A stretch of DNA of 64,000 nt, taken from Mayamaea pseudoterrestris. Lineage: Eukaryota. A program made the position numbers and the translations under genes. The notes beneath the pieces were generated by a model. It saw only the letters and a program-made list of their open reading frames with translations. It did not search any database and was not told where the DNA came from. Below, one piece after another: positions 23,592 through 29,770 of this stretch (positions within the stretch are counted from its first letter, which is position 1; every line of letters begins with the position of its first letter). The stretch spans positions 310,001 to 374,000 of the forward strand of contig BROI01000009.1 in the NCBI GenBank assembly GCA_027923505.1. The letters are read 5' to 3'.

Positions 23592-24906
23592 ATGGACGAG
23601 TTTGCCTTCATACTCAACTCATCCGCGACTTTTGATGACTTAGTGGCCAATGGAGAGGCAAGTCCACCGCTTCCTTTTGATCGAGCAACGATGGGACTTG
23701 CGGAGCGTGTAGATGCCTCCGTTTATAATCCGGTCACTCATGCCGCCCTCGAGGTTACCAATATAATTTACGAACGACACCCCGATGGAAGACCGCCTGA
23801 TAGAGCTTACTGGGTCGGTAGAAAGCTAAAAAAGTGTATTTTTGGTGTCGTCAAAGAGTGCACCGTGCTGAGATTCCGCAATGATATGAATGTTCCTTGG
23901 GAAGTGACTCCTGCCAAGGCAGCCGTCAAGATCATGTCTTGGCAAAAGATTAGCGAGCTCAAGCATATTGAAGACCCTCAACAGGAGGTGGCGGCTATGC
24001 AATTTATAAGCAAAGAGATTCAGCATCCTCATGTGATGGGAGTACTGGATATTTTGTACGATGACGAGTATCTCCTCATGTTCATGCCCTTTTGTTCGTC
24101 GGGCGACCTTTTTGGATTCGTCCAGCAAGCTGGCCGTTTTCCGGAGCAAATGGGCAGGTATTGGTTTAGGCAAATACTTGAGGTAAGTCACAATGGAGCG
24201 TCTTTTCAGCGCGAGTTGCAAACCGCAGCTCATCATCTACTTTTCTACTTCAGGGGTTATCACACTTGCAACGTATGGGAGTATGCCATCGTGACATGTC
24301 GTTAGAAAACAGTGAGTGGGTTGTTGTGATATTTGTTTCGTATTTGTGTAAATTATCCATGCGCAACGTCCTCACCCTTTGATCGCCGCAGTTTTAGTCG
24401 ACGAGTACAAAACTTCGGTCATTATTGACCTCGGAATGTGCTTACGCGTGCCGTACGCTTCGGACGACGGAAGTCCGACACCATCGACCGTCTCGGCTGG
24501 AACATTAAGGCGACTCATTCGGCCCATGATACCATGCGGCAAACCTAACTACATTTCGCCAGAAGTGCTAAAAAGTGAACAGCCATTTGATGGATTCAGT
24601 ATTGACCTCTGGTCCTCTGGTGTCATTTTATTCATTATGCTGGTTGGCTTACCCCCCTGGGAGTTTGCCCGCGAAGAAGATCCTCGGTATCGCATGGTGT
24701 CGCGAGGTGGCTTGGAGCAAATGCTCATTAGCTGGGGCCGCCCTATAAGCCACCAAGCCGCCGATCTTTTGCAAAGAATGCTCCGTGAAGACCCTCGTGA
24801 TCGTCTATCGTTACTAGAAATTAAAGATCACGACTGGGTCAAATACGACGACCCTCCGGTGCAGTCAAACGTGCGATTGGAAGCGAACGAGGGATGGCGC
24901 GGATAG
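23592..24906 (+). CDS. Ser/Thr protein kinase (CAMK-like); 3 exons, introns 24183-24253 and 24312-24391
   Basis: Contains AVK, spliced CHRDMSLEN|ILVD, IIDLGM, CGKPNYISPE and DLWSSGVILF. Confidence 0.93.
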
Positions 24907-24982: not shown

Positions 24983-25555
24983 TTAGCCAAAAAGTCTCCA
25001 GTCTTTGATTTCCAGACTGGAAAGAATTGTTTGAAAAGTCGCGCTATAAGCATGGTCACCATTCTCCTGCTGATTTAGACAGCATGGTGTCGACAGTGTC
25101 AACAAGAGATCAGTAGCGACCGAAGGTAAACGAATGACGCAAATCTCAACTTGGACCCGGCGTTCCTCCTGTTGTCGGGGAATTTCGTTTATATCAACGG
25201 CACGTCCCATTTTGACTCGTTGAAACCCATAGCCGCAACCAATGATAGCCGATTCAGGCAAGCCTCTGACAGTCCCTGTATCTATAGCAAATGTAAATTC
25301 CATATCCTCCTGTTTGCTTTCGTTGATGTTGCATAGATCAATCCAACTGTTCCGGGCTGCTTCCTGAAAGTTTAGCGAAGCATCGTGCTCCAGGCATTCT
25401 AACACAAAGAGCGCGTCGCGGGCACTGTCAAGCCAGCATTCCTGGTTATCTGGAACTTGTCGAATTAAAGCAAGGTCTTGGTATTGTATTGGCAGGCTTA
25501 CTTGAACAGCTCCTCCAAATAGTTGCCGAGGAATGGGTGGATGGGCGGTCGCCAT
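24983..25555 (-). CDS. MOG1: Ran guanine-nucleotide release factor Mog1
   Basis: Contains RQLFGGA, DLALIRQVPDNQE, IRLPSVATDLLLTL and C-terminal SLEIKDWRLFG. Confidence 0.9.
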   Translation of the reverse strand: MATAHPPIPRQLFGGAVQVSLPIQYQDLALIRQVPDNQECWLDSARDALFVLECLEHDASLNFQEAARNSWIDLCNINESKQEDMEFTFAIDTGTVRGLPESAIIGCGYGFQRVKMGRAVDINEIPRQQEERRVQVEICVIRLPSVATDLLLTLSTPCCLNQQENGDHAYSATFQTILSSLEIKDWRLFG

Positions 25556-25673
25556 GGTCGATCAATTCGTTGCATCGCGTGTGAGCAGATCCAATTTCGG
25601 CGCGGGATTCAAAGTGTCTTACCGGTTATCATCGTCACACTTTGGCGTCGTCGACCACCAAATTCTGTCGAAG

Positions 25674-25697
25674 CCATCAACCCATCAACCCATCAAC
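25674..25697. repeat. (CCATCAAC)x3 microsatellite
   Basis: Three exact 8-nt copies lie in the ~200-bp divergent gap between MOG1 and the PPR-methyltransferase gene. Confidence 0.85.
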
Positions 25698-25756
25698 CAA
25701 AAGCTCGCCCGTTGTTCGTTCTAATCCTGCTTTTAGGTTCGTACAACAACAAAGAC

Positions 25757-27943
25757 ATGTCTTTTCAGGGTCTTTTTGAATCTGTCAAGAAGCGGAGGAA
25801 AGAAAAGACGCAACAGCCGCCAGCTAAAGGGCATCAGCATCGTCAGATTGACAGTGAACTCGAGAAGAATCTGCAAGGAGTGAGGCAGCCGCTGTATGCG
25901 CAGAGCAGTACGGTAAAGCATTTGACAGAGGACAAGAAAGACAACGCAGGACTTAAACACAATGGGAAGATACTATCAAGCAACAAGAGGAAGAGGCAAC
26001 CAGTCTCACAAGAAGCTCGTGCTCTCTCGGCGCAACTAAAGGATCTATCGCGGCATAAGCGACTCGATCAAGTGTTGCAGCTCTATTGGAACGCCGAGGA
26101 TCGAGACGCACATCATGCATGCATGGTAATCGATTGCTGCGCGCGCTGTGGGGACGTCTCGGAAGCGGAACGCGTTTTTGACGAAGCTATGCTTCGAAGG
26201 GACACGAGTTTTTCCAACATTGAAATGCACACGGCCTTGCTCAAAGCGTATGCGCACTCTGGACTGATGGTCAAGGCTGATGCGCTGTTTGCCCGCATGT
26301 GCGAGCGACAAAGTCGCATATTTCCCAATGTTAGAACGTTAAATACACTGCTGCGAGGTTGCCTTTGGACGGCGGCGTGCCTCCATGAAAATGTTGTCAT
26401 TGGAGGTGTTGTGACAAGTGAAATGGCTTGGAAATCGTACGTGAGCAAATCTGGCCAAGTTACGCTGGATTGTTCTTCTTATGAATACTCGATATCGCTA
26501 CTATGTCAGGCCCTTCGGGTGCAAGATGCAATGGACCGCATCGAGATGTTCATGAAGCGCTACGAGATCTCTTTCAAGGGCAAGGCTGGCTTCCGTGGAG
26601 GCGATCATACGTCGCTAGAAACACTTGCTGTCGTATATTTGTCGTTGGCCAAAGCGTTTGGACTTTTGGGACGCTGGAATGATACGTGGACGGCATGCCA
26701 AAGGGTACTAAGTGCCACCGACGGCTCCAGGGCTCGACTTGTGGTGGCATCGACGAGCAATGTTGCCGTAAGCGAAGCAAGACTTAAACAAACAACCGGC
26801 GGTAAACGGTCTTGGAACAGCGCGTCCGATGGTTCTTCACAAAGAACAGCTTCAAACTCGTCTTTTCGCGCGCATCGCTTATCAGAGCTGGAGTGGGAAG
26901 CGAGGACAATTCTCAAGCTGCGCACGGATGGTGTAATAAATCGTATTTCACATGAGTCGCTAGCGTCGTGTCTTTTGACGCGCCTTCTTTACTTCTCTGG
27001 AGGCGGTACGACTGATTTAAACTCGACGGCCACGAAGCTTGATGCTGTAAATGACAGGACAACGCAGCAACGAAGCCTTCTCGCTCCTGCTTGGTACAGC
27101 TTTGGCTTATGTACTTTGGTGGACATGCATTCTCGTGGTTTCACGCAAACTGGGATGACCCCGGACCCTCAAGAAATTTACAAGCTTTTTCGACTAGACG
27201 AAGATATGAAAAGAATCATCCGTGACGATGGTCGCGTTGATTTTAACAATCTATTCTCGGACGGAAGTCAGCCAATCGACCTTGAACTTGGTAGTGGTTT
27301 CGGTGAGTGGATTGCGAAACAGGCTCAAACAAATCCATTGAGAAATTACATTGCAGTGGAGCTTCGAGCGGATCGTGTGTCTCATATTTTATGCAAACTG
27401 TCTTTGCTGCTGGGACTTCGCAATGTTTGCGTCGTTGGATCGGATTGCGCAAAGTTTTTTCGGATGCACATGCCGCCCGCGAGAATTTCAAATGTTTATG
27501 TTAATCATCCGGAGCCACCAACGCAGACATTGGGTGACAATGCCAATGATTTGAATGCCATTATGAATGGCGGATCCGAACCTGCTCACATGCTTTGTAG
27601 TTCAACATTGATTGCCGTCGCTGTAGCATTGAAACCAGGTGGGAAGATCGTCATCATATCTGACAATCGCTGGTATTCTCGACTGCTTTGCGCAACAATG
27701 GTGAAAGTGAATCGAAGGAATAAGTGTCGTTTAATGGCCTGCTCGTTACCTGAAGCGAAAGATATCGGATTGCAGTTCGTGGAACACTTCAACGACGGTG
27801 CCACACTATACCAAACTGTGACTACGAGCAACGCAAAGGATGGCAGAATGGGAGAAACCTGGTTTGATCGTCTCTGGCAAACGGGAGCTGGACGACATGC
27901 AGAAAGATTGACGCGATTTGTAGTCATAGTGACGAAAATATAA
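25757..27943 (+). CDS. PPR-repeat protein fused to a TrmB/Trm8-like (guanine-N7) methyltransferase domain
   Basis: PPR motifs include HACMVIDCCARCGDVSEAERVFDE, MHTALLKAYAHSGLMVKADALFARM and PNVRTLNTLLRGC. The C-terminal domain has LELGSGFGEW, AVELRADRV, NHPEP, LKPGGKIVIISDN and TWFDRLW. Confidence 0.87.
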   Translation: MSFQGLFESVKKRRKEKTQQPPAKGHQHRQIDSELEKNLQGVRQPLYAQSSTVKHLTEDKKDNAGLKHNGKILSSNKRKRQPVSQEARALSAQLKDLSRHKRLDQVLQLYWNAEDRDAHHACMVIDCCARCGDVSEAERVFDEAMLRRDTSFSNIEMHTALLKAYAHSGLMVKADALFARMCERQSRIFPNVRTLNTLLRGCLWTAACLHENVVIGGVVTSEMAWKSYVSKSGQVTLDCSSYEYSISLLCQALRVQDAMDRIEMFMKRYEISFKGKAGFRGGDHTSLETLAVVYLSLAKAFGLLGRWNDTWTACQRVLSATDGSRARLVVASTSNVAVSEARLKQTTGGKRSWNSASDGSSQRTASNSSFRAHRLSELEWEARTILKLRTDGVINRISHESLASCLLTRLLYFSGGGTTDLNSTATKLDAVNDRTTQQRSLLAPAWYSFGLCTLVDMHSRGFTQTGMTPDPQEIYKLFRLDEDMKRIIRDDGRVDFNNLFSDGSQPIDLELGSGFGEWIAKQAQTNPLRNYIAVELRADRVSHILCKLSLLLGLRNVCVVGSDCAKFFRMHMPPARISNVYVNHPEPPTQTLGDNANDLNAIMNGGSEPAHMLCSSTLIAVAVALKPGGKIVIISDNRWYSRLLCATMVKVNRRNKCRLMACSLPEAKDIGLQFVEHFNDGATLYQTVTTSNAKDGRMGETWFDRLWQTGAGRHAERLTRFVVIVTKI

Positions 27944-27967: not shown

Positions 27968-29770
27968 CTACGCTCCTCCAAACCAGTTACGGCACCTTGT
28001 CGTGTACAAATCACGTCGTTCGAGCTCTAATGCCGCTCTTTCGCTTTCCAGCAAACCCTCTACATCATCTAATCTACCAAGGCGGTTCTCGAGCTTTTTC
28101 AATCTCAAATTCAAAATTTCGGCCATAATTTTGCTAATCGTTTTTTCGCCACGTTTCGCTTCTTGTAAAGCCTGGTAGGCCACCAACCCAGCCACGCCAT
28201 TTCGTTGCGCACATGCTAAATTACCCATAGACTCAGCACGTAGCGCTGCTTCGACTACAACATTCACAACCTTTGCATCGCTCCTGTCAAGAATGTCCTG
28301 AAGAAACGCTTGCTGCAGCGATAGTTTTGACTTGGCATCATCATCCTCGAATTCAGCGGGCGTATGTTTTAACTCAGTCATTTCACTCTTCAAAGAAGTC
28401 ACCTCTGGCGTAATAGGTCGTTCTGCGAAAGTATCAGCAATGGGCATGGCTAAAAATTGTCGCTCACAATCGGTGGACGTCACCCCATGCCCAACCGCCT
28501 TTGCTACAGCATCCCAGTCGATGACTGGGTCAAATGCCGAAGATGATGCGTCAAGGAGCTTCCGACGCTTGCACGATTCCTCCACTACAATATGAAGCAA
28601 CTCATACTGGAGTGGTTCGCTCCATCGGTACTTGGCCTTGCTTTCCTGCAGCGTAATAGGTGTTGGGGCGGAGTCGTTTAAAGCAAGGTCATTTATAAGC
28701 CCGTACGCCGTCAAAAAGTTATAAAGTCTCGTCAAGCTACCAACATCGCCAGGAATGGACCTACGAATCATGGTCGTCGTGACATAACGGCCGCCGAGCT
28801 TGTTGGACATGTCTATCATCCGGTTGCGGCTGGCAAGGTAGGACTTCTCATTGCGATGAAATGCGCTGCCATCGAACCATTCAAAGAGTATAGATTGTTC
28901 TAGATCCGACACATCTTGTGCCTTAAACCATTCGGGCCACTTACTTTTAGCCTTCATTTCCGTGTCAAGTTGCATCGCATTGTCGTCTGAACTCCCAATA
29001 GTCAATCCTGGTTGTGCATGCTGTCGCCACTGCGAATCAGGTTTGACCATGAGAGGGACTACTTCAGGGAGTGACCTGGATGAAGGAGTACCGGAGCAAG
29101 CAACCGCTGCTGGAACAAGGCTATTTGAAGAACCATATGCTGCTGACAAAGCTGAATCAATCTGTAATGTGAGCGTAGGAGCAGAAACGGCTGGAATCGC
29201 AGCTTGTATTGTAGCATCAACAACCATTTCCTTTCCATCCAGTCCTTCCTTTGAAAGTGCCGCTCCAGAATAATCCTTTTGCTGCGAGACTGCATCATTC
29301 TGCTGTGTCAGTTGGCCTTCCGTAGCCTCGTTCACCCCGTCGCCATCCGTGCCTCCACCTCGAATGCGCTCCGCCTCTCCTAGCTTGCTTTCCTCCATGG
29401 GCCAGTGCCGATTGCATGCATAGCATTGAAGCCTCTCGGGAAGCATCTTATCAACATCTGCTGGGAGAACAACTTGTTGGATTTCTGTAACAATCATGCC
29501 TGCCAAGGTCTTGTCGCGCGAGGGTCGAACGACAGAGTCCAATCCTGGAAGTTGGCAGTTCCGTTCGCTCGCATCCATTGCAGCTTTCATAAGTTCAAGA
29601 GAAACCTTTGGCAGTCTTAATGCTCCTTCGTGCACGACATGTCGTACTTTCTCGCCTTTGACCCCGTACAGGCCGGTGAGAATACTTGTGGGGTTCATTC
29701 CTGCCGTTTCGTCGCGCAACAGTGGATGTTGCTTTTCCTGCTGGCCGGTTTCGCCACCAGACGACTGCAT
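27968..29770 (-). CDS. SWI/SNF subunit SWI3/SMARCC-like
   Basis: SWIRM domain (PEWF...LEQSILFEWF...YLASRNRMI...GDVGSLTRLYNFLTAYGLIN), SANT domain (DWDAVAKAVG...DCERQFLAMPI) and C-terminal coiled coil (LKKLENRL...LESERAALE). Confidence 0.9.
   Translation of the reverse strand: MQSSGGETGQQEKQHPLLRDETAGMNPTSILTGLYGVKGEKVRHVVHEGALRLPKVSLELMKAAMDASERNCQLPGLDSVVRPSRDKTLAGMIVTEIQQVVLPADVDKMLPERLQCYACNRHWPMEESKLGEAERIRGGGTDGDGVNEATEGQLTQQNDAVSQQKDYSGAALSKEGLDGKEMVVDATIQAAIPAVSAPTLTLQIDSALSAAYGSSNSLVPAAVACSGTPSSRSLPEVVPLMVKPDSQWRQHAQPGLTIGSSDDNAMQLDTEMKAKSKWPEWFKAQDVSDLEQSILFEWFDGSAFHRNEKSYLASRNRMIDMSNKLGGRYVTTTMIRRSIPGDVGSLTRLYNFLTAYGLINDLALNDSAPTPITLQESKAKYRWSEPLQYELLHIVVEESCKRRKLLDASSSAFDPVIDWDAVAKAVGHGVTSTDCERQFLAMPIADTFAERPITPEVTSLKSEMTELKHTPAEFEDDDAKSKLSLQQAFLQDILDRSDAKVVNVVVEAALRAESMGNLACAQRNGVAGLVAYQALQEAKRGEKTISKIMAEILNLRLKKLENRLGRLDDVEGLLESERAALELERRDLYTTRCRNWFGGA

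Follow-up and report, generated by a model that had tools for sequence, protein, structure and literature searches.

The closest described relatives of the gene reported here are the PPR-TGM proteins, a subfamily of pentatricopeptide repeat (PPR) proteins named by Manna and Barth in 2013 (BMC Res Notes 6:525, PMC4029402), in which 3 to 7 PPR motifs are combined with a C-terminal bacterial-like tRNA guanine-N7 methyltransferase (TGM) domain. As reported there, the subfamily comprised 22 proteins of 406 to 1884 amino acids (aa) from slime moulds, Entamoeba, Perkinsus, chlorophytes, cryptophytes, a haptophyte, and two diatoms (Phaeodactylum tricornutum, XP_002177626, and Thalassiosira oceanica, EJK76724). 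The same paper predicted in silico that these proteins form 7-methylguanosine at position 46 (m7G46), argued for a chlamydial origin of the TGM domain, and gave as background that most PPR proteins act in organelles. PPR-TGM is cited as an established PPR class by a 2026 review (PMC12787238) and a 2023 preprint, and Dictyostelium PtcE was assigned to mitochondria by in silico prediction (PMC3753752). Here, we analyzed a further gene of this kind in a 64,000-nucleotide stretch of the genome of the diatom Mayamaea pseudoterrestris (contig BROI01000009.1, positions 310,001 to 374,000; hereafter, the window), where it occupies positions 25757 to 27943 of the forward strand and encodes a 728-aa protein.

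Three other systems frame the comparison. The first is bacterial TrmB, a stand-alone enzyme of about 200 aa. In E. coli TrmB, alanine at R26, D144, H151, R154, R155, D180, T217, or E220 lowers activity to below 10%, the D144 equivalent hydrogen bonds the adenine N6 of S-adenosylmethionine (SAM), and D180 and T179 are proposed to position the guanine, according to PMC10130221; PMC6320965 likewise places the catalytic centre at the D180 equivalent, Asp133 of the A. aeolicus T132-D133 pair. The second comprises the Trm8-Trm82 and METTL1-WDR4 complexes, in which Trm8 and METTL1 are described as needing an RNA-binding or stabilizing scaffold (PMC6320965). The third is PRORP, whose PPR domain is reported to bind pre-tRNA by shape and without the canonical base-reading positions (PMC5689006).

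An intronless gene for a PPR-TGM protein

Positions 25757 to 27943 (+), stop codon included, form one unbroken open frame of 728 aa plus stop. This is an ordinary diatom gene without introns, and it encodes a PPR-TGM protein, i.e., PPR repeats and a TrmB-type guanine-N7 RNA methyltransferase in a single polypeptide. The length falls within the 406 to 1884 aa reported for the subfamily, and the protein shares with its described members the handful of PPR motifs (five hairpins, with PPR families above cutoff), the C-terminal TGM domain, and the one-polypeptide organization. The coding sequence is complete as judged by the open frame, by best relatives that align over 100% of the query at 56 to 66% identity, and by the lack of joints inside the gene in all four sequencing runs of one study (X1 to X4; kind of data not stated) that cover the stretch. 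The start codon, ATG at 25757, is backed by an N-terminal M-x-F-x-x-x-F motif that is kept in relatives. We rejected a longer, TTG-initiated frame (25523), which would overlap the start region of a divergent Mog1 gene; the relatives begin at M-x-F.

Contigs of runs X3 and X4 cover 25699 to 27739 piecewise and at low depth, with both halves of the gene included, a pattern that fits an expressed intronless gene but falls short of proof of a single transcript, as none of their listed contigs bridges 26446 to 26890. These two runs were taken as RNA-derived because of GT..AG-joined contigs in the neighboring protein kinase gene (Pkinase) upstream, where X3/X4 contigs skip 71 and 80 bases (24180/24252 and 24311/24392), that is, two short introns within 24180 to 24392.

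A word-indexed protein search returned 190 relatives at E ≤ 0.001. PF02390 (Methyltransf_4) was found in all of the 120 that were listed, nearly always together with PPR families. The named relatives are diatoms with 37 to 41% identity (Fistulifera solaris, Cylindrotheca closterium, Epithemia, Pseudo-nitzschia, and Nitzschia), and two transcripts marked "complete" in the Marine Microbial Eukaryote Transcriptome Sequencing Project (MMETSP) carry PF02390 plus PPR. The full-length relatives and these complete transcripts indicate that in relatives the fusion is conserved and that its two parts share one transcript. With aa 470 to 728 as the query, phmmer against the whole library yielded 946 representatives at E ≤ 0.001, of which 349 reached 1e-10 or better and 103 reached 1e-30 or better. 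Among 38 nonfragment representatives at E 1e-30 and weaker, PF02390 was present in every case and PPR scored above cutoff in 16. Other RNA-binding modules occur on some methyltransferases of the P-E-P-P type (described below) among these distant representatives: P0252 and P0257 combine CCCH zinc fingers with PPR, as reported for a chlorophyte subgroup in PMC4029402, and P0237 carries a zinc finger of the C2H2-jaz type for double-stranded RNA and lacks a PPR match. Some distant representatives pass PPR_long, P0253 for example with 48.1 bits (cutoff 27). The 90% cluster of P0225 contains a 364-aa member labeled Picozoa, and the family thus reaches a lineage absent from the 2013 list. Short stand-alone methyltransferase relatives were also considered (47 matches, 30 to 51% identical) and set aside as probable fragments, being eukaryote-like and in many cases located on short contigs; this search, made with the methyltransferase part, reached no bacterial TrmB.

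The earlier note on this DNA, made from the letters alone, had read the fusion correctly, and the fusion is conserved across diatoms and other protists. The same note presented it as a candidate uncharacterized system, a claim that does not hold for the architecture, to which Manna and Barth had already given the name PPR-TGM and assigned diatom proteins (PMC4029402). Nothing about the architecture as such is new.

The model contains a complete TrmB fold behind a PPR tract

The Pfam scan assigned aa 505 to 587 to Methyltransf_4 (PF02390; E 7.6e-17, 61.7 bits, cutoff 24), a match that covers profile positions 2 to 83 of 173 only, i.e., the first half of the domain. PPR_2 (37.8 bits, cutoff 30) and PPR (35.1 bits, cutoff 25, in two stretches) were above their thresholds, and PPR_long (PF17177, the PRORP type) remained below it at 14.9 bits (cutoff 27). 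Tetratricopeptide (TPR) rather than PPR repeats, an alternative raised beforehand, were rejected, since no TPR family reached E ≤ 1 in the same scan. Sequence matches to solved structures were to designer PPR proteins (E ~3e-14) and to S. pneumoniae TrmB (1.5e-5 over aa 493 to 587). The NCBIfam TrmB equivalogs matched with the first half of their models only and below cutoff (TIGR00091, 45.4 versus 112.65 bits; NF001080, 40.2 versus 132 bits).

An AlphaFold2 model was built on 89 aligned relatives. Its mean predicted local distance difference test score (pLDDT) is 86.6 and its predicted template modeling (TM) score is 0.86, with pLDDT below 50 only at aa 1 to 3, 22 to 67, 342 to 355, and 692 to 694. 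In a Foldseek search of the PDB, the top places went to TrmB structures from E. coli, B. subtilis, and S. pneumoniae, with E values between 5.6e-9 and 6e-8 and target-based TM scores of 0.63 to 0.73 (best match 3dxy, E 5.6e-9), followed by METTL1 and Trm8. These candidates were compared again by structural alignment with Z scores. The TrmB structures of the three species reached Z 18.5 to 19.7 with 195 to 200 of 200 to 208 residues aligned at root mean square deviations (rmsd) of 2.8 to 3.9; the E. coli entry 3dxz, for example, aligned 195 of 200 residues with model residues 400 to 728 (Z 19.7, rmsd 3.4). Six of the eight TrmB rows begin at model residue 399 or 400 and run to 728, and the other two begin at 248 and 250. 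METTL1 and Trm8 gave Z 15.1 to 16.6 and other methyltransferases at most 14.2, among them rRNA methyltransferases such as KamB/NpmA-type entries (Z ~14). Look-alikes in the ESM Atlas belonged to PF02390 clusters only, with scores of 0.90 to 0.91. According to the model, the protein therefore has the whole TrmB fold, of which the Pfam and NCBIfam profiles recognize the first half only.

On these grounds the protein can be divided into four regions. The N-terminal region (aa 1 to 84; 25757 to 26008, +) starts with M-x-F-x-x-x-F, contains a short predicted helix at aa 4 to 18, and continues as a disordered stretch rich in lysine and arginine (K/R). The PPR tract (aa 85 to 268; 26009 to 26560, +), supported by Pfam and the model, forms five hairpins at aa 85 to 112, 118 to 146, 155 to 182, 192 to 232 (with a β-hairpin insert), and 239 to 268, and the designed 5-repeat PPR protein 4ozs aligns with model residues 86 to 290 over 171 of its 175 residues (Z 14.3, rmsd 3.1). 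A further helical region (aa 269 to 399; 26561 to 26953, +), in which no Pfam family scored above threshold, links the PPR tract to the methyltransferase in the model through helices at aa 284 to 303, 307 to 338, and 359 to 390, with a disordered loop at 342 to 355. The TrmB-type class I SAM methyltransferase (aa 400 to 728; 26954 to 27940, +) is defined by the structural alignment, Foldseek, and PF02390, and carries insertions relative to the ~200-aa bacterial enzyme that bring the domain to about 330 aa; the N-terminal extension, PPR tract included, adds about 400 residues. The parts recognized earlier from the letters, namely 4 to 5 PPR-like repeats at ~26010 to 26550 (aa 85 to 265), a helical region after them, and a class I SAM domain with TrmB hallmarks, are thus all borne out, the last with every quoted motif present.

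SAM-binding and proposed guanine-positioning residues are kept and the PDP motif is replaced by a fixed PEPP signature

To compare the active sites, the family profile was aligned with hhalign to E. coli TrmB (trmB from NC_000913). The two matched with 95.5% probability (E 1.6e-8), query residues 490 to 644 pairing with TrmB 50 to 188. The alignment places LELGSGFG opposite LEIGFGMG, AVELR opposite GIEVH, NHPEPP opposite FFPDPW, and ISDNRWY opposite ATDWEPY. In the query, LELGSGFG begins at aa 509, AVE lies at 533 to 535, HPEP at 584 to 587, LKPGG at 624 to 628, SD at 635 to 636, and TWFD at 701 to 704. SAM-binding motif I, E510-L-G-S-G-F-G516 (27284 to 27304, +), aligns with EIGFGMG of E. coli TrmB; H-P-E-P-P (aa 584 to 588; 27506 to 27520, +) replaces F-P-D-P-W, with E586 in the place of D144; and S635-D636-N637 (27659 to 27667, +) is the counterpart of T179-D180. 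T701-W-F-D-R-L-W707 (27857 to 27877, +) is the likely counterpart of T217-K-F-E220, a pairing made by eye, as the hhalign alignment ends at aa 644. Together with PF02390, Foldseek, and the TrmB Z scores, these correspondences make the guanine-N7 RNA methyltransferase proposed in the earlier note a probable assignment.

Residue conservation was counted over the 120 listed relatives and, for the PEP site, over a wider set of 97 further representatives. All 120 relatives have E510, G512, G514, G516, and E535, and all likewise have P585, E586, P587, and P588. D636, F703, D704, and an S/T at 701 occur in 119 relatives each, and a T/S at 635 in 118. Retention of the SAM- and guanine-site residues in 119 to 120 of the 120 argues for an active enzyme. 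In the wider set, 95 representatives cover the PEP site, of which 94 read PEPP, one PEPV, and none PDP; the remaining two are fragments that stop short of it. Judged from these sequences, HPEP is no lesion but a signature fixed throughout the clade, and the substitution is conservative: the D144 equivalent hydrogen bonds the SAM adenine, and Glu for Asp retains the carboxylate. The earlier note had pointed out that the conserved FPDP motif reads HPEP here and that the PDP Asp is functionally important; a defect of this copy is not supported. The Glu is invariant in the 120 listed relatives and the 95 wider representatives, and the Asp proposed as catalytic in the sources cited above (PMC10130221, PMC6320965) is the later one of the T-D pair (E. 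coli D180). This proposed catalytic Asp is intact in the Mayamaea protein, by alignment, as D636.

The second clade-wide difference concerns the basic segment that follows P-D-P in TrmB (H-K-A-R-H-N-K-R-R). The query segment aligned to it by hhalign is devoid of K/R, and the 12 residues after PEP contain a median of 0 K/R over the listed relatives versus 5 after P-D-P in E. coli TrmB. The clade has in its place a loop of the form P-P-T-Q ... E-P-x-H-M-L, in which P588, Q590, E608, and H611 are invariant. Invariant H611 might act as a stand-in for H151, on a loop alignment that is itself uncertain. Of the motifs of bacterial TrmB (3DXX/3DXY/3DXZ, 2FCA/7NYB), its best fold match, the protein retains motif I, the Glu of motif II, the T/S-D pair, and probably also that of the form T-x-F-acid.

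The distribution of the signature was explored by a pattern scan of one genome per species in 185,579 prokaryotic species, using two clade motif patterns derived from a 7-sequence alignment. The scan gave 48 pattern matches of the N-[HYF]-P-E-P-P type, none of which was confirmed by tblastn; with two patterns only, it does not reach the claim of a chlamydial origin. This outcome hints weakly that the P-E-P-P type is eukaryotic.

A predicted RNA-docking role for the helical array

The reading that we favor, with a probability of about 0.5 on the strength of sequence and model, is that the protein is an active m7G RNA methyltransferase in which the helical array and the basic N terminus dock the RNA, probably a tRNA to be methylated at G46, outside the organelles. 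Residues 400 to 728 would be the SAM-dependent enzyme that makes m7G. The PPR and helical array, along with the K/R-rich N terminus, would supply the RNA docking that the basic segment provides in TrmB and that Trm82 or WDR4 provides for Trm8 or METTL1. That the array could stand in for a Trm82-type helper, as suggested in the earlier note, or for a lost RNA-binding element fits the missing basic segment. The methyltransferase fold is shared with Trm8 and METTL1, to which the protein is less close than to the bacterial type, and the scaffold required by those enzymes would here be a fused helical array, not a separate WD40 protein. The RNA in question would be structured and conserved; the most likely candidate is a tRNA with methylation at G46, which Manna and Barth predicted (PMC4029402). 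The diatom protein would work in the nucleus or cytosol.

The last point derives from the N terminus, which looks to us unlike either a mitochondrial presequence or a signal peptide and more like a nuclear localization signal (NLS). NLS-like clusters occur at aa 11 to 17 (KKRRKEK) and aa 77 to 81 (KRKRQ), and the first 40 residues include five acidic ones. The M-x-F-x-x-x-hydrophobic start is found in 51 of the 120 listed relatives, with near variants in others. Within the first 40 residues these 51 have medians of 5 acidic and 9 basic residues; all 51 carry K/R clusters within the first 130 residues, and none has a signal-peptide-like hydrophobic stretch. Import into diatom plastids needs a signal peptide. 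The basic, NLS-like rather than presequence-like character noted earlier from the letters is thereby upheld, and the extra-organellar reading follows from this lack of presequence or signal-peptide character.

These observations also bear on an organellar enzyme, i.e., a TrmB of bacterial type that would enter mitochondria (or the plastid) and form m7G46 on organelle-encoded tRNAs, with a separate Trm8/Trm82 pair serving the cytosolic tRNAs. We consider this unlikely, even though the fold is closer to bacterial TrmB than to Trm8/METTL1 (Z 18.5 to 19.7 versus 15.1 to 16.6) and the literature leans toward organelles, for PPR proteins in general (PMC4029402), by prediction for PtcE (PMC3753752), and, in the 2026 review, for most PPR-TGM proteins (PMC12787238). 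A start motif that is conserved instead of variable, with acidic residues behind it and no signal-peptide-like stretch in any of the 51 relatives, is at odds with import. Picozoa are without plastids, and a Picozoa member sits in the cluster of one distant representative. The two diatom members of PMC4029402, like the Mayamaea protein, have weak organelle-targeting signals (Mitoprot 23% and 1%), and that paper also lists members in Entamoeba, whose mitosomes are without a genome.

Conserved putative base-reading positions and the choice of RNA

The register of the repeats was placed by eye from the designer-PPR alignments and the model helices, and the positions 5/35 inferred from it are S91/D117, C122/N154, T159/N191, N196/D238, and E243 for the five repeats. 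Among the 89 aligned relatives, eight of these nine positions are at least 90% conserved and four are invariant; only N154 varies. The enrichment of conservation at the base-reading positions over the region has a p of ~4e-5 by a rough hypergeometric count. By the commonly used PPR code, repeats 1, 3, and 4 would presumably read G, A, and U, and repeats 2 and 5 (Cys and Glu) would be noncanonical. Conservation of this kind suggests, from the alignment, a conserved RNA ligand.

An alternative, the proposal of the earlier note taken in full, is a sequence-guided enzyme, whose PPR tract would read a short RNA base by base and direct methylation to a guanine elsewhere than at tRNA G46, be it in the anticodon loop of an organellar tRNA, in rRNA, or in another RNA. 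The conserved base-reading positions speak for guidance, as do the invariant clade loop that has taken the place of the basic tRNA-binding stretch of TrmB and the scores below the TrmB equivalog cutoffs; moreover, PMC6320965 gives the genes and enzymes for m7G at anticodon positions 34/36 of mitochondrial and chloroplast tRNAs as not identified. The account is nonetheless doubtful. The tract has about five repeats, of which two carry residues (Cys and Glu) that do not belong to the commonly used code, and four or five nucleotides afford little specificity. TrmB is clearly the best fold match, ahead of the KamB/NpmA-type rRNA methyltransferases. The short PPR tract of PRORP, finally, is reported to bind tRNA by shape via noncanonical positions (PMC5689006). 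PRORP resembles the present protein in fusing a short PPR tract to an enzyme acting on tRNA and differs from it in having a metallonuclease as the catalytic domain; it also ignores the canonical base-reading positions, whereas the inferred code positions of the Mayamaea protein are highly conserved and its PPR_long score is below cutoff.

A catalytically dead methyltransferase-like domain, retained for RNA binding or scaffolding, would account for the replaced PDP Asp, the lost basic segment, and the half-profile Pfam match, but is highly improbable given the carboxylate kept by E586, the confidently modeled complete TrmB fold, and the near-universal conservation of E510, G512, G514, G516, E535, E586, D636, F703, and D704 recorded above.

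Several points weigh against the favored reading of an active, RNA-docking m7G methyltransferase outside organelles. H151, R154, and R155 of E. coli TrmB are without a visible counterpart in the query, so that RNA must be bound in another way and another target is conceivable. Support for the hhalign alignment is poor between aa 588 and 620. Equivalog scores so far below cutoff leave functional equivalence to TrmB unestablished. The verdict on the N terminus comes from simple composition counts, not from a trained predictor, and the 2026 review describes PPR-TGMs as "predominantly targeted to mitochondria" (PMC12787238). With base-reading positions set by eye, the register is inferred. Our literature searches turned up no experiments on the activity, substrate, SAM binding, or location of a PPR-TGM protein.

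Neighboring genes and sequence variation

The window has a G+C content of ~48%, and the neighbors of the PPR-TGM gene are ordinary eukaryotic nuclear genes, i.e., the protein kinase gene upstream, Mog1, and a SWIRM gene. The Mog1 (Ran-interacting) gene (24983 to 25555, −; 190 aa) lies head to head with the PPR-TGM gene, and since the two start codons are only ~200 bases apart, a bidirectional promoter region is probably shared. The SWIRM/SWIRM-associated (SWI3-like) gene (27968 to 29770, −; 600 aa) lies tail to tail with it, and with only 24 bases between the stop codons, overlap of the two 3′ untranslated regions is unavoidable. Both the PPR-TGM and the SWIRM genes are covered by a contig of 4316 bases from run X1.

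The four runs differ from the window by many single-base changes and a few small insertions or deletions at 25666 to 25800 and scattered up to 30307, which looks like allelic or strain variation. Run X2 lacks 8 bases at 25674, shortly before the PPR-TGM start codon; its many 1-base deletions may be read errors.

Implications for the PPR-TGM family

The Results and discussion of PMC4029402 mention neither the PEPP signature nor the missing basic segment nor the conserved code positions; the first two may show in its supplementary alignments. A bolder interpretation of these features, tentative and in our estimate improbable, is that the P-E-P-P clade is a eukaryote-only, neofunctionalized branch of TrmB. 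The code residues of repeats 1 to 4 (roughly 5′-G-?-A-U-3′) would then choose a guanine other than G46, such as anticodon position 34/36 of organellar tRNAs or a site in a nuclear or nucleolar RNA, or the protein would have replaced Trm8/Trm82 altogether in diatoms. Whichever reading applies, a PPR-TGM protein with demonstrated activity would be the first member of the PPR proteins known to direct the methylation of a base, and nature's own case of a repeat array joined to an enzyme that modifies RNA. Glu in P-D-P, the missing basic segment, and the conserved code positions, all of them clade-wide, define concrete mutants for the family.

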